The notes under the pieces: model-generated
Seen by the model: the letters and a program-made list of their open reading frames with translations, nothing else
Databases searched by the model: none
What the model was told of the DNA's origin: nothing
Origin: Escherichia phage EC106
Reading direction: 5' to 3' (one strand)
Sequence record: ON210138.1
DNA: 64,000 nucleotides
Made by a program: the position numbers and the translations under genes
In this document: piece after piece, positions 300 to 8,272 of the stretch
Layout: every line of letters starts with the position of its first letter
How positions within the stretch are numbered: the stretch's first letter is position 1

Positions 300-1085
300 T
301 TAGTTCTTTGCGTCTAAGAAGGTTACTTCCGGTGAAGAGAAAATTTCCTCAACATCCTCATCAGTTCTTGCATAGATATATGTATCTGCATCACTGCCAA
401 ATGTTACTGCAATCCTGTGATTGCTCTTCGACAGGTGGGTAACTAGAGCGTTACTTAGAGACATCTTTTCAACCGGAGGGTTACTTTGATGTATCTTACC
501 TTTTCTTCGTCTGAAGAGGGTAACTGCGTTATCTGTGAACACAACTACACCTGCAAAGTGTTCTGGTTCACAGTAGTTCTTCCAACCTGAGAGTAACTTG
601 TGGTACATCTCTCCTTCATAGACATATAGATAAACATCTACACTCTTCATCACCTGATTGATGATAACTGTGACGGCTTGAGGGTCAAGTCCACCGATAC
701 CTGCACCAATCATAGGTAAACCAACTTTCTTCAACTGATTGACTTCACAGTATCTGTTAAGCTGTTTCAAAGATGACTCTAAAGCACTGTATCGGGCATC
801 TTTACCAGTCTTAAGCTGAGTGTAAAGGTTAGCTATACGGCCTTGTTTTAAACGTGCTACAGAGAAATTGCCTAGTAAATTTTCACATGGTTTGTGGCCT
901 ATACCACCTGCATACAGATAGACTTCTGTATCGGTCTCATATGCTTTTGGGTAAAGTTTAGAAATCTTGTCAGCAATACCTGCACCCATTAAGTTCATAC
1001 AGTTACAACCGTGACCAATAATATCAAACTTACCCTTATCAAATGCGGAGAAGATATCCCCATTGATGATTTTTACAATACCCAT
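300..1085 (-). CDS. macro-domain (ADP-ribose binding/processing) protein with uncharacterised C-terminal extension
   Basis: N-terminal INGDIF, DIIGHGCNC, MGAGIA and later GLPMIGAGIGG motifs match macro-domain glycine-rich loops; C-terminal ~100 aa unassigned. Confidence 0.6.
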   Translation of the reverse strand: MGIVKIINGDIFSAFDKGKFDIIGHGCNCMNLMGAGIADKISKLYPKAYETDTEVYLYAGGIGHKPCENLLGNFSVARLKQGRIANLYTQLKTGKDARYSALESSLKQLNRYCEVNQLKKVGLPMIGAGIGGLDPQAVTVIINQVMKSVDVYLYVYEGEMYHKLLSGWKNYCEPEHFAGVVVFTDNAVTLFRRRKGKIHQSNPPVEKMSLSNALVTHLSKSNHRIAVTFGSDADTYIYARTDEDVEEIFSSPEVTFLDAKN

Positions 1086-2611: not shown

Positions 2612-2632
2612 AAAAAGGCTCCCGAAGGAGCC
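2612..2632 (-). terminator. rho-independent terminator (GGCUCC-UUCG-GGAGCC + U5)
   Basis: perfect 6-bp stem, UUCG tetraloop on minus strand, followed by U-run. Confidence 0.75.
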
Positions 2633-2638
2633 TGTATA

Positions 2639-3451
2639 TTACTCTTGACTGTAATAGTTGACAAGTGAAATTGCTTGATTCATCAACAGCTTATCAGCCT
2701 GTGCTCCGCGACCAGCTTGTAATGCTAGTTGGTATACCTCTGTAACATATTTGTTAGACATACCTTCACAGTAATCGTTATAATCCTCCCAAAAGGAGAA
2801 TGCAGCATCACCATATAGGCGTAATGTGATTAGCATTGCTGCACGGATACCAGAAGAGTACTTGCGTTTTGCGTTTACTACACCTTTAAGCTGTACTTCA
2901 AGAGAATCAATTTGTTCCAACTCATTCTTAAAATCATTAAGGTATTTAACTGTTTCAGTGTTAGATACCTGTTGCACACCATAGTATGCAGCAACATACT
3001 TAATGGCAGTAGCCCAAGATGCTTTCATCAATTCTGATTCTGGATTGAAAGAAATCATCTTCATATTCCCGTAATAAACCTCTGAAGGTTTCTCTCTTGC
3101 TAATTCAGAGTCAAAATGAGTATACAAATCTGTGACATCCAATATAGAGTTCACATGGTATATAACTGCAATCAGGTTATCTGGTCGTGTCAGGTTACCA
3201 ACCTTCCATGCCTCTCGACGTGAGTGTCCATCAATAATAAACAGTGAACTGCCAAACTTAGCTACATGGACTACTGTTTGGTCTGGTGACACATCACCAT
3301 TAAGGTGCTTACTCTTCAGACGTTTCAGTGTATTTCTCTGACGAGGATTTTCTTTGTAGCGTTTCTCGTTAAGGAAATCCTCAACACTGATAATCTTAGT
3401 GTGCATTTTAACAACTTTACCGTTCAGTGCTACATTGATGCTATTTGACAT
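2639..3451 (-). CDS. ParB/Srx-like domain protein (paralog of 6418-7257)
   Basis: IDGHSRREAW motif resembling the DGHxR core of ParB-like nuclease/CTPase folds; clear similarity to 6418-7257. Confidence 0.45.
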   Translation of the reverse strand: MSNSINVALNGKVVKMHTKIISVEDFLNEKRYKENPRQRNTLKRLKSKHLNGDVSPDQTVVHVAKFGSSLFIIDGHSRREAWKVGNLTRPDNLIAVIYHVNSILDVTDLYTHFDSELAREKPSEVYYGNMKMISFNPESELMKASWATAIKYVAAYYGVQQVSNTETVKYLNDFKNELEQIDSLEVQLKGVVNAKRKYSSGIRAAMLITLRLYGDAAFSFWEDYNDYCEGMSNKYVTEVYQLALQAGRGAQADKLLMNQAISLVNYYSQE

Positions 3452-3462
3452 AACTTTATACC

Positions 3463-4347
3463 TTAGTTGTGGATAATTACTTCGTTAATACCTTTGCTTC
3501 TCTGTGCATGTATTGTGTATGAATGATTAACCTCTGTCAAGTGAAAATTTTCAGGAATTAGGTTTATCCATCCGTCCCACTGAGAGTTTGACATTAACAC
3601 CTTAGAGCCTAACTCCCCCCAATCAGACATATCTTTGCACAATTTCACAGACATTGAAACGTCGAACTTTGCGCCATATTTCTGGTTGGTGTTTATATAT
3701 GGTGGGTCACAGTAAATGACCGTCCCTTCTCCATGCTTTATGTCAACCATATCATAAGAGTGACTGCTGAGGACAACCCTCTCATCAGTGATGAAGTTAT
3801 AGAACTCCTTTAGTGCTTCTTCAGTCTTTGTAAAGAAAACTTCTTCTTCCATCAAATAGCCGCAAGGGGTTGCATAGTGCCCTTTCATCTCTTTAGTTGT
3901 CTGCCATACACCACCAAAACTTAGTTTCTGAAGGAAAAACTGTCTGGCATAGTATCTGTAGTCATAGACACCAGATTCACCAAGCGTGAGAAGCTCGTCT
4001 CTTACACTGTAGTACATCTTATAACGTAATCGGTTATGGCGTTGCCCCTTCATAGTGTACTCTTCCTGCATAGGTAATGCTAAGTACCTTTTTGCCAAGT
4101 ACCGAAACCCTTCCATGAATTTGTCATAATCATCCCTGAAGGTTATGTAAAGCTCTATGATATGCTTGTTTATCTCATTAATAAATATTTTTGCTTCTGG
4201 GTACTTATTGTAAGCCCAGATAGCTACTGAGCCACCACCTGAAAACAGGTCATAGAAGTTTTTACAGTTGTCTGGAAAGACACCTAAACGCTCATATTCT
4301 TTCAGTATTCTTGTTTTACCGCCAAGATACTTAAACATTGGTTTCAT
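3463..4347 (-). CDS. dam: Dam-family N6-adenine DNA methyltransferase
   Basis: KYLGGK N-terminus, FSGGGSV (motif I) and CDPPY (motif IV). Confidence 0.85.
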   Translation of the reverse strand: MKPMFKYLGGKTRILKEYERLGVFPDNCKNFYDLFSGGGSVAIWAYNKYPEAKIFINEINKHIIELYITFRDDYDKFMEGFRYLAKRYLALPMQEEYTMKGQRHNRLRYKMYYSVRDELLTLGESGVYDYRYYARQFFLQKLSFGGVWQTTKEMKGHYATPCGYLMEEEVFFTKTEEALKEFYNFITDERVVLSSHSYDMVDIKHGEGTVIYCDPPYINTNQKYGAKFDVSMSVKLCKDMSDWGELGSKVLMSNSQWDGWINLIPENFHLTEVNHSYTIHAQRSKGINEVIIHN

Positions 4348-4364
4348 TAGTACTCCTTGAATTT

Positions 4365-4385
4365 AAAAAGGCTCCCGAAGGAGCC
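4365..4385 (-). terminator. rho-independent terminator, same hairpin sequence as 2612-2632
   Basis: GGCUCC-UUCG-GGAGCC + U5 on minus strand. Confidence 0.75.
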
Positions 4386-4397
4386 TGTATCTTAACC

Positions 4398-4862
4398 TTA
4401 ACCGAGGACTTTAGCAAGGAAATTTGCAGCCATCGAAGAAGCTTTTGCAGCAGCAGCTACCCCAGCTTTGGCAGTGCTATCCTTGATAGCAGATACCGTT
4501 GCAGCATCAGTAAAGAGATAAGTAGTTGTTTTAGAACCACTTGTAAAGGAAAGCATGAGAGCAGTTTCCAGATTGAAAGAGCGATACGGAGCACCTTCTT
4601 TAACGATACCTACAGCACCTAATTCTGAAGCCATCCCCATATCATAGATGGTCATCAGGTTTTCTTTGTGTGCAGTCGTTGAACCAGCACCTTTGACGTG
4701 TTTCTTAACATTCAAAAGGGCACGATACTCCCGAATGTTACCGTCTGCTTTTACATTGACAGCACGGAAGATTTTACCCTCAAAGTTGCTCTTGATAATG
4801 TTACGAACTACTTCAGATTTGTTTGCCGTAACGTCAAGTGCTACCGTAATGATATTGTTCAT
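4398..4862 (-). CDS. hypothetical protein
   Basis: ORF with Ala/Ser/Thr-rich C-terminus; no recognisable motif. Confidence 0.4.
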   Translation of the reverse strand: MNNIITVALDVTANKSEVVRNIIKSNFEGKIFRAVNVKADGNIREYRALLNVKKHVKGAGSTTAHKENLMTIYDMGMASELGAVGIVKEGAPYRSFNLETALMLSFTSGSKTTTYLFTDAATVSAIKDSTAKAGVAAAAKASSMAANFLAKVLG

Positions 4863-4872
4863 AAGTTTTCTC

Positions 4873-6093
4873 TCAATGTTTAACTAACATGGTTTTAATG
4901 TGTGGAAGGATTCTGTTCACCTTCTGCACATTCTTCTCTGTGTCTTCTATAAAACATACTATATTAAAGTAAGGCAGGATGCAAGACTGAATCATCCTCA
5001 CTTTCAAACTTTCTGCACTTATAGAGTTAGTCCCAAAACCACGCATAAAAAGCATGTAGTCATGCTCTGTGTTATGCCTTAAAAACATCTCAGTAGGTAT
5101 TCTCTGAGATTCACCTCTCGCTGTCAAGAGGCCAATGGCAGCATGATTAGCAATTGCATCAATGATATTGAAAACATACGTTGGTTTTGCTCTTACAGAG
5201 TCAAGAAGATTGGTATACTGTGAAAATGAACCGTCTGTCAATTCCGTTGAGCAATCTTCGTGATTAAAATTTGTAAGAACACCATCAATATCTGCTAAGA
5301 TGAGATTCCCTTTTTCTACAAGGTCTTTATTGACTATGACTAAGCTATCACGACTCACACCTATAGTTTGTCCAGTCTCTTTATCAACAATGTTCACAAT
5401 TGGTTCTGATGTGTGGAACTCTTCAAGTGAACATATAACTTCTCTTGCAGTGTCTTCAAAATCCCTGCACTGTTCTGGAGTCCATACACAGGAATCAAGA
5501 CCTAACTCATGAGGATGTAAGTCATAAGCATGACACAGGACTTCATCAGACTTTTTAATTTTTTCATGGTTTACCTTAGAAATGTTTGTTGCAAATTCAC
5601 ATTGAGCAATAACTTTCATGTTGTTATAGACATCTTGAGAATACTTCTTAGCTTTAGGGATTCTGTACGAATACCCAGCATTATATGATGCTAAAACTTT
5701 TTGTAAAGTCTTCTTTGACTTTGGCTGACCATGCACCTTTGTCCAAAACTCAAGCTCTTTGTGAGTTTCCTTCGCAGCATAATCAAAGTCTCTTAAGAGT
5801 TTCTTTTTAGCCACATTAGGGCTAATTTTGTTACGCTTTACAACAGTCTTCAAGTGATTCTGGAAAATACCATAATCGTGTGTCTTTTTATTCTCTACCT
5901 TCAGACCTAACTCTGACTCTTGTAAGGCTATAGCAGCTAGAGTGATACCCCAACCTTTACCCATGTTATTCTCACCATACTGGTAAGCTTTTAACATGTT
6001 TACTTTTTGGCTAATTGATAGCTCTGGGCAGTCAACTGCATAAGATAAGTGTGCTGTAAACATTAAGCACAAACCTAGAATCAATTTCTTCAT
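4873..6093 (-). CDS. secreted lytic transglycosylase (SLT) domain protein with C-terminal HAD-like phosphatase-type domain
   Basis: signal peptide; SLT motifs QESE, GIFQ, SYNAGYS; C-terminal DIDGVLT (HAD motif I) and IEDTEKN. Confidence 0.55.
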   Translation of the reverse strand: MKKLILGLCLMFTAHLSYAVDCPELSISQKVNMLKAYQYGENNMGKGWGITLAAIALQESELGLKVENKKTHDYGIFQNHLKTVVKRNKISPNVAKKKLLRDFDYAAKETHKELEFWTKVHGQPKSKKTLQKVLASYNAGYSYRIPKAKKYSQDVYNNMKVIAQCEFATNISKVNHEKIKKSDEVLCHAYDLHPHELGLDSCVWTPEQCRDFEDTAREVICSLEEFHTSEPIVNIVDKETGQTIGVSRDSLVIVNKDLVEKGNLILADIDGVLTNFNHEDCSTELTDGSFSQYTNLLDSVRAKPTYVFNIIDAIANHAAIGLLTARGESQRIPTEMFLRHNTEHDYMLFMRGFGTNSISAESLKVRMIQSCILPYFNIVCFIEDTEKNVQKVNRILPHIKTMLVKH

Positions 6094-6154
6094 TGGTTCT
6101 CCTGTTTAGTTTATCGTGACAACAATTATACAGTACTCTGCACAAAATACAAAT

Positions 6155-6180
6155 AAAAAAGGCCGCCGAAGCAGCCTTTT
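6155..6180 (-). terminator. rho-independent terminator, possibly bidirectional
   Basis: GGCUGC-UUCG-GCGGCC hairpin flanked by A-run and T-run. Confidence 0.6.
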
Positions 6181-6182
6181 AG

Positions 6183-6443
6183 TTACATTACGTAGAGGTT
6201 CCCAAAACCTGTAGGTTTCCCATTACGAAAGTTACGACGCTTAACAGGTAACTTAGTGATAGTTTTCGTCTTCTCTAAGTCTATAAAGGTCTGTGTAAAA
6301 TCCGACGGGAGATATTTTTTACCAAACTTTGCAGAGAGGTACTCTGCTACTTCGTATTGTGTAGCTGCCCCCAGATACTTGAGAGCAACCCTGACCATCA
6401 TCTTTTTAACTTGCATATCAGTCCTTATAAGCTCTAAATGCAA
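6183..6443 (-). CDS. hypothetical protein
   Basis: ORF in operon context only. Confidence 0.35.
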   Translation of the reverse strand: MHLELIRTDMQVKKMMVRVALKYLGAATQYEVAEYLSAKFGKKYLPSDFTQTFIDLEKTKTITKLPVKRRNFRNGKPTGFGNLYVM

Positions 6444-7257
6444 CGTCAGCTTGTGACATTACATAACCTTGAAACACACCACCATTCTGGTCATACTGGG
6501 TCTTCATGGCATCTAAGAAGCTGCTTACAGACTCATCATCATCACGGTAGTCCAACCAGAACTTTGTAGCCTTTTCAGGGTTTTCTTTGAAGCTCTTAAG
6601 CATTGCTGCCATAATTGGAGCAGAGTACTTTTTACGCAGTTCACACTTCTGCTTAACACCGTTTACAGTCTTCTCTTTGTACTTATCCATCTCATCCTTA
6701 TTAATGCCAAGTGCATCAATAAGTTTAAGCTCTTCTTGATAGAGTACAAATGCTTCATCAAGGCATCCACGGAGACCTAATAAGGCCCACACACCAGCAC
6801 CAGTAAATTTCTTGGTGAACGCTGTCTGTGGCTTATAACCAGAGCGTAGTATTGCAGTTGTAACTTGGTCACCATTTGTGGCTCGTGAGTCCAGTGAGTT
6901 TTCTTGGTCGTAGAGGAAATCTACTTCTTCCTGTGAATTAACGGCAAACAGTGTCACATAGACAAGTCCGTTCTTGGGAGCACCTAACTTACCATTCTTC
7001 CAGTTCTCTACGCGCGCATGAGAATCAATGTTGATAACTTCTCCATTGAATAGTACACCCGTAACACGGGAACGTAAATCCACCTCACGAAGTTCTTCAT
7101 TAAGGTAGGGTTTAGCAATTCGTCGTTCAATGCTACGGTTTGCTGAGTAAGGCTTTGCACAGTTAGCCCAATCCATGTACCCCATGAAGAAGGAAGCTAC
7201 ACCACAAACGAAATCAATCTTGCAAGGTGTTTTGCTCTGGAACTCTTTGAATTTCAT
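6418..7257 (-). CDS. ParB/Srx-like domain protein (paralog of 2639-3451)
   Basis: IDSHARVENW motif and shared KYSxxxxAAML...FW C-terminal block with 2639-3451. Confidence 0.45.
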   Translation of the reverse strand: MKFKEFQSKTPCKIDFVCGVASFFMGYMDWANCAKPYSANRSIERRIAKPYLNEELREVDLRSRVTGVLFNGEVINIDSHARVENWKNGKLGAPKNGLVYVTLFAVNSQEEVDFLYDQENSLDSRATNGDQVTTAILRSGYKPQTAFTKKFTGAGVWALLGLRGCLDEAFVLYQEELKLIDALGINKDEMDKYKEKTVNGVKQKCELRKKYSAPIMAAMLKSFKENPEKATKFWLDYRDDDESVSSFLDAMKTQYDQNGGVFQGYVMSQADVAFRAYKD

Positions 7258-7262
7258 AGTTG

Positions 7263-7281
7263 CTCTCTCTCTCTCTCTCTC
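7263..7281. repeat. (CT)9 dinucleotide microsatellite
   Basis: ctctctctctctctctctc in intergenic spacer between methyltransferase and ParB-like genes. Confidence 0.9.
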
Positions 7282-7324
7282 ATCTACTAGGTTTGTTTAC
7301 AGGTATACTATATAAATTCTTTTA

Positions 7325-8224
7325 TTAATGCAAGTGTTTTTCTAAAGTATTTATAATTTCTTGTGAGTTGATAGAGCCTGCATAACTCAGTGCAAAACCA
7401 TCTCTCAAATCATTAAACCATTCTTGTTTGATTGCTGAGTAAAGTCCTTCTATGTGTGGTTCGATAAACTGTTTCACTGACACCTTGTCTTTATCTGGTT
7501 CAAAAGCCTTCACAGTACCAGCCTTGCGACCATGCGTGATAATCGTGAACAAGTCTTTGCCATCTAGTTTACCTAAAACACCAACTGGCTGCTCTTTACC
7601 ATCAATCTTGTGACATGGTGGTCTGTATAGTGTGAATTTCTCACGCTTATAGACTCTTACACCATCAACTATCACAGGGGCAATCTTACAAATTTTATCT
7701 GCCCGTTTTTGTCTCTTCCAGATTTGGAAGTTACAGCGTAGTGATGACTCTTTTGCTGAGTAGGCAACTCCATCAATCCTTTCAAAATGAAGGTTAGGTA
7801 GCTCTACTTCATCAATGCAGGTGTACTCTCTGCTAAGTCTGCTAAGATTCTTCTTCCCAAAGTTAATAGGAACTAGGAAGCAAATGTAGTCTGGATTCAT
7901 TGTAGCAGCCTTGTTAAAGAACTTTGTAGACAGACTGTTTGCCTTACCAAATGGAGGGTTGGTAACAATCGCAAAAGGCTTATCTGGAATTTCTAAGTCA
8001 TCTTTCAGGAAGTCTCTTGTGCTAACATCTTCAGAGTCTGGTTCGATGTCGTATAGCACAACATCTTGACAAACCCTCTTAAAAGAGTCTTTCCATCTTC
8101 CGTCACCTGCACAGGGGTCTATAATGCACGAAATAGAGCCTTTAAAGACCTTTTGTAGCTTCTCTTCACACACTCTTATTACTTCGTCTGGTGTGTAGTA
8201 TTTATCAAGTTCTGCTTTAGCCAT
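7325..8224 (-). CDS. gamma-class DNA methyltransferase (N6-adenine or N4-cytosine)
   Basis: YYTP, IDPCAGDG (motif I) and NPPF (motif IV) in gamma-class order. Confidence 0.7.
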   Translation of the reverse strand: MAKAELDKYYTPDEVIRVCEEKLQKVFKGSISCIIDPCAGDGRWKDSFKRVCQDVVLYDIEPDSEDVSTRDFLKDDLEIPDKPFAIVTNPPFGKANSLSTKFFNKAATMNPDYICFLVPINFGKKNLSRLSREYTCIDEVELPNLHFERIDGVAYSAKESSLRCNFQIWKRQKRADKICKIAPVIVDGVRVYKREKFTLYRPPCHKIDGKEQPVGVLGKLDGKDLFTIITHGRKAGTVKAFEPDKDKVSVKQFIEPHIEGLYSAIKQEWFNDLRDGFALSYAGSINSQEIINTLEKHLH

Positions 8225-8238
8225 TCATCCTCCCATAT

Positions 8239-8260
8239 AAAAAAGGCTACCGAAGTAGCC
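8239..8260 (-). terminator. rho-independent terminator (GGCUAC-UUCG-GUAGCC + U6)
   Basis: hairpin plus U-run on minus strand. Confidence 0.7.
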
Positions 8261-8272
8261 TATTGTAACCTA

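Follow-up and report, generated by a model that had tools for sequence, protein, structure and literature searches.

Two DNA methyltransferase (MTase) cassettes lie in Escherichia phage EC106, a Felix O1-like myovirus of the genus Felixounavirus. The window analysed here is a 64-kb stretch of this genome (64,000 nucleotides (nt) of record ON210138.1), and every gene in its first 12 kb is on the minus strand. Each cassette encodes an MTase (M1 or M2) and a separate partner protein (P1 or P2) whose N-terminal domain is predicted to adopt a ParB/Srx fold (Table 1). The order of transcription runs from rIIA and rIIB through M2, P2 and a small open reading frame (ORF) to an SLT-like/polynucleotide kinase (PNK) gene and a phrog_2267 gene, then through M1 and P1 to the spanins. 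Over its full length, this 6-kb region is 94% identical to Shigella phage Tf, and parts of it match more than 200 related phage records.

The four ORFs named in an earlier note, which read the locus as two cassettes of an MTase and a ParB-like protein, are all present at exactly the positions assigned to them. The pairs are real, but cassette 2 also holds a third small gene that had been overlooked. This gene sits between P2 and the downstream terminator T3. Its likely start is the ATG at 6416, 1 nt past the P2 stop and annotated as such in Tf and ESCO56, which gives 77 amino acids; the longest ORF opens at a TTG at 6443 and gives 86. Pfam and PHROG searches returned no family match for the product. 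In both cassettes the MTase is translated ahead of its partner. The M1 stop and the P1 start are 11 nt apart, and the M2-P2 spacer spans 67 nt, contains no terminator and ends in a (GA)n run. Close relatives differ in the length of this tract: EC106 has 19 nt, Tf 9 nt and ESCO56 13 nt. It may be a slippage-prone ribosome-binding region.

Table 1. Features of the two cassettes and of related loci (positions refer to the window unless another locus is named)
Feature	Position	Strand	Description
P1	2639-3451	minus	270 amino acids; phrog_2615; predicted N-terminal ParB/Srx fold, helical C-terminal half
M1	3463-4347	minus	294 amino acids; D12-class, alpha order, N6-adenine DNA MTase
P2	6418-7257	minus	279 amino acids; P1 paralogue, core DSHAR
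M2	7325-8224	minus	299 amino acids; gamma-order probable N6-adenine DNA MTase
Third small gene, cassette 2	6183-6416 (ATG) or 6183-6443 (TTG)	minus	between P2 and T3; no family match
(GA)n tract	7263-7281	minus	directly upstream of the P2 start codon
Hairpin T1	2612-2637, stem-loop 2616-2633	minus	predicted terminator; downstream copy of the 26-nt direct repeat
Hairpin T2	4365-4390, stem-loop 4369-4386	minus	predicted terminator; upstream copy of the 26-nt repeat
Hairpin T3	6157-6180	minus	backbone element; closes cassette 2; Felix O1 also has it, at its empty site
Hairpin T4	8244-8261	minus	separates the rIIB stop from the M2 start; came with cassette 2
Metallophosphoesterases near P-family genes	L001 4792-5886; L041 484-1575; L063 4807-5874

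Methyltransferases, terminators and insertion history

M1 matches PF02086 (D12) over its full length (residues 7-279), scoring 77.5 bits against a cut-off of 22 (E 1.8e-21). Its motif I, FSGGG (35-39), stands ahead of DPPY (~214-217), which is the alpha order, and its distant relatives in the PDB are DpnM and T4 Dam; the TIGR00571 score of 103 bits falls under the cut-off of 114.85. M2 has the gamma order, with DPCAGDG (36-42) ahead of NPPF (89-92). It matches PHROG DNA-MTase families (phrog_799 at 1.7e-19), the PADLOC type II MTase models (MTase_II, 2e-22) and, over residues 55-100 only, PF02384 (22.9 against a cut-off of 20.4). Residues 1-190 of M2 resemble the MTases of about 170 amino acids that modify adenine in phages of the rV5-like and phAPEC8-like types; the ~110 residues at its C-terminus are unique. 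The substrate of M2 is presumably DNA, not RNA. The full-length PF02086 match and the position of motif I before DPPY agree with the earlier assignment of M1 to the Dam family, as the motif order of M2 does with its assignment to the gamma class. The further claim that the two enzymes belong to different classes is borne out as well: one is of the alpha, D12 type and the other of gamma order, and no similarity is detectable when they are compared.

GATC does not occur in the window, where about 210 sites would be expected, and CTGCAG, CAGCTG, ATGCAT, CCATGG, GGTACC and GAATTC are also absent. The loci of Felix O1, Tf, ESCO56 and phiEa104 likewise lack GATC, and its absence is a known trait of the genus (PMC5477317, PMC4690856). 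GATC content is normal (19 observed, 22 expected) in L039, a Felix-like metagenomic contig with a D12 MTase. With no site in the window, a true GATC Dam would find nothing to methylate in this genome, which excludes for M1 the self-protection expected of a canonical Dam; M1 has either a specificity other than GATC or a target other than phage DNA.

Four UUCG-loop hairpins followed by T-runs (T1 to T4) lie between genes on the coding strand, with free energies of -10.7 to -14.7 kcal/mol and z-scores of -3.8 to -4.6. The remaining 58 kb of the window contains just one further UUCG hairpin with a T-run. Each of the four combines a stable hairpin and a U-run on the transcribed strand at an intergenic site, the features by which intrinsic (Rho-independent) terminators are predicted. 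They flank both cassettes, where the earlier note had placed them, and T1 and T2 are indeed the same over 26 nt, forming a perfect direct repeat (ATACAGGCTCCTTCGGGAGCCTTTTT) that bounds cassette 1. T4 is unlike T3 in sequence. The gaps upstream of the two cassettes measure 48-50 nt and are taken up by the hairpin and the ribosome-binding site, leaving 17 nt from hairpin to start codon for M1 and 17-19 nt across both cassettes. No promoter-like or convincing sigma-70-like site was found upstream of M1 or M2. With neither a promoter nor room for one, the cassettes must be expressed by read-through of backbone transcription. The earlier description of the cassettes as insulated is thus too strong, each starting right after a terminator; they are attenuated rather than insulated.

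The gene order of Felix O1 (rIIA, rIIB, the SLT-like ORF3, PNK, ORF5, spanin) leaves both cassette sites empty. At site 1, a single copy of ATACAGGCTCCTTCGGGAGCCTTTTT lies between ORF5 and the spanin gene. At site 2, the backbone terminator and its downstream sequence directly follow rIIB; the insert in EC106 consists of the different hairpin T4, M2, P2 and the small ORF, which Felix O1 does not have. Cassette 1 arose either by insertion with duplication of the resident terminator or by recombinational exchange within the terminator. Relatives variously carry cassette 1, cassette 2 or both. P1 is present in 13 phage records, P2 and M2 in nine each, and both cassettes occur together in two database records, Tf and ESCO56. 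M2 and P2 always co-occur in Felixounavirus (9/9 records), and all Felixounavirus records with P1 or P2 carry the matching MTase. Judged from these comparisons, the two cassettes are independent, separately acquired insertions. Of the earlier proposal of modular acquisition or duplication, acquisition stands, supported by the empty sites in Felix O1 and by relatives with either or both cassettes. Duplication of one cassette from the other was rejected: the MTases are unrelated and the partners only 26% identical.

P1 is disrupted in both database phages that have two cassettes, and both P genes are intact in the EC106 window. ESCO56 has lost P1 codons 1 to ~238 through a clean microhomology deletion that leaves M1 intact (L037 1694-1847). 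In Tf, P1 is split by a 1-nt insertion in an A-run (L005 3925-4053); this was not accepted as a second natural loss, as such a change could be a sequencing error. These two cases, one of them possibly an error, may hint at redundancy or incompatibility of P1 and P2. Cassette 1 is also carried by two records labelled 'Campylobacter phage A132/A126' (MG065664 and MG065668), which are ~92% identical to this region and probably represent mislabelled or contaminant assemblies.

Sequence and predicted fold of the partner family

P1 and P2 align by BLASTP with 26% identity over 213 amino acids (E 4e-12), and are true but old paralogues. The alignment includes a KYSxxxxAAML...FW block common to both proteins and the core that P1 spells DGHSR (74-78). 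The block and the core had been described as shared, and both do align, but Gly is replaced by Ser in P2, which makes the common core D[GS]HxR rather than DGHxR. PHROGs places both proteins in phrog_2615, of 'unknown function'. At E<=1e-3, an exhaustive HMMER search collected 705 family representatives; most are viral, and most are stand-alone proteins 250-330 amino acids long. The consensus of a 146-member alignment reads DNPxQR[DN]T...HL...KLDGH[TS]R..LW..G.L..P...Y......LY..FD. R78 is the sole residue invariant in all 146 sequences, and D74 and H76 are near-invariant. In the C-terminal half only D182 and F220 are near-invariant, and there is no conserved His/Glu constellation. One metagenomic contig (L038) carries two P-family paralogues in tandem (61-888 and 949-1902), the second recognized by hhalign at 98.8% probability.

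Curated sequence models do not see this family. P1 and P2 drew no useful hit in Pfam, NCBIfam, PADLOC or PDB sequences. Not one of the 146 members matches the Pfam models for ParB (PF02195), DndB or DUF262, and the single weak hit is to ParBc_2 (PF08857, E 0.0097); Pfam likewise finds no helix-turn-helix (HTH) domain in 145 of the 146. The 146-member profile has no match among PDB sequences, and hhalign of this profile against Bacillus subtilis ParB, its sequence verified against 6sdk, finds nothing (probability 0.5%). A word-indexed homology search, also when seeded with distant phage homologues, recovered near-identical proteins only, and a search for related loci with a Rhizobium phage protein found none. 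A scan of species-representative genomes with a single pattern gave three loci, a figure that understates occurrence in cellular genomes.

Structure prediction places the family more readily. An AlphaFold2 model of P1 from a four-sequence alignment was unusable (pLDDT 44) and was replaced by one from a deep alignment (pLDDT 95.7, pTM 0.84), in which an N-terminal alpha/beta domain (~1-115) is followed by a helical C-terminal half. The top nine Foldseek matches in the PDB are all nucleotide-bound ParB/PadC structures (probability 0.97-1.0), the best including ParB-CDP and ParB-CTPgammaS complexes. In a viral structure library, members of the family itself come first (TM score up to 0.82), followed by proteins annotated as ParB-like nuclease, DndB-type and GmrSD-N. 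The C-terminal half matches generic helical bundles only. The superposition of the N-terminal fold on ParB/PadC in this confident model upholds the earlier ParB/Srx-like call, and at the level of fold the membership of P1 and P2 in the ParB/Srx superfamily is supported. In the model, R78 lies at a strand-to-helix junction (strand 69-74, helix 76-84), and DGH[ST]R occupies the place of the G-x-x-R motif of the superfamily (Box II or P motif), whose Arg is needed for nucleotide binding (PMC12704722). Sequence comparison found no match to B. subtilis ParB, so no residue-level alignment of Boxes I, II and III is claimed. A large family unseen by curated sequence models is now placed in the ParB/Srx fold.

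Linkage to methyltransferases and possible function

Genes of the P family recur beside MTases well outside Felixounavirus. Among homologues in T4-like cyanophages, a beta-class MTase directly adjoins P in all 28 informative loci, 18 with the MTase first (Syn19-type) and 10 with P first (S-CAM4-type). These MTases were considered as relatives of M1 or M2 and rejected, being of the unrelated beta class. Metagenomic relatives adjoin D12 MTases in either gene order. In the Felix-like contig L039, the position of cassette 2 (before SLT-PNK) is held by a Dam-type MTase (38% identity to M1), a P2-type partner (41% identity to P2) and, after it, a homologue of the small ORF (35% identity, E 3e-7); one class of MTase can therefore replace another without loss of the P2-type partner or the small gene.

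The broader clade was examined through 69 further IMG/VR loci, whose immediate neighbours were scanned with Pfam without bias and which dereplicate to 28 lineages. The +1 gene is a PF01555 MTase in 23 of 54 loci, plus one MT-A70; upstream, there are one MT-A70 and one PF05869 Dam, and SNF2/DEAD helicases are commonest. Weighted by lineage, MTases make up 19% of +1 genes, against 1.3% of non-adjacent genes in the same loci and 0.3% of genes at least four positions away. When positions +1 and -1 are pooled (9.7% vs 1.3%) and lineage counts rounded, the odds ratio in a Fisher test is 6.75 (p = 0.008). This position-specific linkage involves five or more families of MTase (D12, gamma type, PF01555, MT-A70 and PF05869). 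The pairing recurs across Ounavirinae, Kyanoviridae and uncultured phages, in both gene orders.

The reading favoured here, with a rough probability of 0.4, is that P1 and P2 are accessory factors that bind a nucleotide triphosphate (NTP), act on DNA and work in trans with the adjoining MTase, forming early-expressed anti-restriction or DNA-marking modules. The two accessory cassettes, set at terminator-bounded intergenic sites in the early leftward-transcribed region, would be expressed by read-through, each supplying an orphan DNA adenine MTase and a stand-alone ParB/Srx-fold protein. The partner may bind NTP in its ParB pocket, as the fold and the invariant Arg suggest, and would then load onto or remodel replicating phage DNA. 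Once loaded, it could let whichever MTase is encoded beside it mark the DNA efficiently. Such a module would be an in-trans version of the ParB-MTase fusions of phages, analogous to the help that DpdB gives to DpdA. Its benefit would most likely be escape from host restriction or from another DNA-targeting defence.

Several observations weigh against this reading, and against the earlier suggestion that the partner targets or regulates methylation. NTP binding is argued from the fold and the invariant Arg only, and the correspondence of the motif with that of ParB is drawn from structure, sequence comparison finding nothing. If M1 is GATC-specific, it has no substrate on the phage, which weakens self-protection as the role of cassette 1. 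The linkage is optional: an MTase is adjacent in only six of the 28 broad-clade lineages, and about two thirds or more of the lineages of the family have none beside P. Other neighbours are helicases, a clamp loader, metallophosphoesterases (three lineages) and DUF1376. The pairing of a P2-type partner with a Dam-type MTase in L039 argues against a specific, co-evolving protein-protein interface, and ESCO56 keeps M1 without P1, though P2 is present there. The exchange in L039 and the survival of M1 in ESCO56 would fit action through DNA, or an independent function, better than an enzyme-specific complex.

The last two cases, together with the majority of lineages that have no adjacent MTase, also suit the idea that P acts independently of the MTase, as a DNA-metabolism protein of the replication module or an anti-defence protein that might, for instance, organise DNA or counter some other host system, and that adjacency reflects co-mobilised accessory genes. 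The company that P keeps elsewhere points the same way, comprising SNF2/DEAD helicases, clamp loader, PolA, Rad52, RusA, dUTPase and metallophosphoesterases, and a Kolesnikvirus homologue stands alone among nucleotide-metabolism genes. Independence is nonetheless unlikely: the enrichment of MTases is specific to the +1 position (19% vs 1.3%) rather than the diffuse signal of module sharing, P is found paired with five or more MTase families, in both orders and in several phage groups, and M2 and P2 always go together in Felixounavirus. A different role for the pairing would make P an NTP-regulated nickase or DNase, or a toxic DNA-binding effector, directed at unmethylated host or competitor DNA, against which the MTase would shield the phage's own DNA; the pair would be a compact restriction-modification-like or exclusion module carried by the phage. 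Metal-dependent DNase and ATPase activity is reported at ParB/Srx pockets, including the ParB domain of a ParB-methylase fusion from Bacillus cereus (PMC5512222), and D74, H76 and R78 are near-invariant or invariant in P. Translation of the MTase first in both Felix cassettes would also make sense for such an effector, as would the occurrence in Felixounavirus of M1 without P1 (ESCO56) and never of P without its matching MTase. An effector of this kind seems improbable in view of the many P genes without an adjacent MTase, which would be self-destructive unless the MTase were elsewhere in the genome, and of the Syn19-type loci, which already have a gene annotated as an R.RsaI-like endonuclease upstream of the MTase. 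The C-terminal half offers no conserved His/Glu constellation, and the same conserved core stands beside very different MTases, which is unexpected if P has to match different recognition sites.

Regulation of the cassette MTase by P, as a DndB-like nucleotide-sensing transcriptional regulator, is very unlikely. It has a precedent in DndB, cited in PMC10164549 and PMC12704722 as a ParB-fold, ATP-modulated repressor of a DNA-modification operon, and DndB-type annotated proteins are among the structural neighbours of the P1 model. Cassette 1 nevertheless has no space for a promoter or operator (17 nt from T2 to M1, 11 nt from M1 to P1), no convincing sigma-70-like promoter precedes either MTase, expression being by read-through, and 145 of 146 family members lack an HTH. 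It is also quite doubtful that P is a DNA clamp with a ParB fold, gated by NTP, that reads DNA methylation, or exploits it, instead of binding a particular MTase. If it were, P and any adenine MTase would together make up a portable unit, labelling the phage's DNA as self and discriminating against DNA without the label; the unit might steer replication or packaging, or attack the DNA of the host or of a competitor. A clamp of this type would explain both the interchangeable class of the MTase and the frequent fusion or linkage of ParB-like proteins with DNA modification.

Should P prove to be an NTP-dependent methylation accessory, as favoured here, or a reader of methylation, a function would be gained for a widespread class of phage genes. 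EC106 and its relatives offer a workable system, with two paralogous pairs in one genome among phages of E. coli and Salmonella, and with natural variants for study: relatives with neither, one or both cassettes, and a P1 deletion that retains M1. The system suits the question of why ParB-like proteins travel with DNA methylases.

Neighbouring genes of the wider family show further regularities. A trio of an SNF2/DEAD helicase (~450-497 amino acids), P and a PF01555 MTase recurs in uncultured phages (L074-L116), and small winged-helix proteins lie upstream of P in four IMG/VR loci. A metallophosphoesterase of ~360 amino acids adjoins P or lies one gene from it in three lineages without an adjacent MTase, and may be a second recurrent partner of the family. 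In Syn19-type loci (L003 2565-3080; L007-L025), an ORF of ~145-171 amino acids just upstream of the MTase mostly overlaps the MTase start; in Syn19 its annotation is R.RsaI endonuclease, so these loci may each combine a complete restriction-modification system with P. In S-CAM4 (L002 4916-5800), the MTase beside P is annotated as a fragment of 165 amino acids, and an ORF of 294 amino acids is open, with DPPY near the N-terminus. The database annotation is probably truncated, the upstream start being open as in related contigs.

Two other genes in the window call for mention. The SLT-like and PNK sequences form one ORF of 406 amino acids in EC106 (4873-6093, minus strand; junction near 5555), with one G absent in an A-rich tract at the junction (AAAAAATTAA-AAAG). 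In Felix O1, Tf, ESCO56 and L039 the two are separate ORFs with an overlap of ~20 nt, and the single ORF could be a true fusion, a frameshift site or a sequencing error. A macro-domain gene in the same early region (300-1085, minus strand; PF01661) belongs to phrog_335, 'phosphatase', and is annotated as O-acetyl-ADP-ribose deacetylase in ESCO56; its product may serve anti-defence.

Comparison with known systems

Canonical ParB/Spo0J shares the fold of its N-terminal domain with P1. Unlike it, P has no HTH, C-terminal dimerisation domain, TIGR00180 match or parA neighbour that could be found. The DndB/DUF262 branch, which includes GmrS, the N-domain of SspE and BrxU, differs in its motif (DGQ[HQ]R as opposed to DGH[ST]R); the P family has neither the DUF1524/HNH nuclease domain nor the Pfam match, and no dnd, ssp or BREX genes among its neighbours. 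As insertions, the cassettes resemble phage morons and other accessory inserts, being discrete, present or absent between backbone genes and bounded by terminators. They differ from morons in having no promoter despite their terminators, and cassette 1 is flanked by an exact 26-nt duplicate of the resident terminator.

DpdB, from the bacterial Dpd 7-deazaguanine system, is a homodimer in which a ParB fold at the N-terminus is followed by a helical C-terminal domain, and the transglycosylase DpdA depends on the ATPase of DpdB for DNA modification (PMC10164549). The P1 model has the same two-part layout, and its gene likewise lies beside that of a DNA-modification enzyme. The differences are that the P family is viral and its ATPase putative, that DpdB carries DGQQR where P has DGH[ST]R, with no detectable sequence similarity, and that the partners of P are S-adenosylmethionine-dependent adenine MTases rather than a transglycosylase.

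That ParB-like proteins associate with DNA-modifying enzymes in phages is already known as a general theme. ParB-fold domains are often fused to DNA MTases in phages, and some bind ATP, not CTP (PMC12704722); the role of ParB domains alongside MTases 'remains unknown' (PMC12783734; likewise PMC12704722). These fusions (PF02195 with PF01555 or Methyltransf_23) couple the same fold to a phage DNA MTase. The P family differs in that it is not detected by PF02195, and a PF02195-based survey presumably missed it. The P partner also has a helical domain of its own, of ~150 residues. What is new in the P family is a partner encoded by a separate gene rather than a fusion, placed before or after the MTase and linked to many MTase classes.

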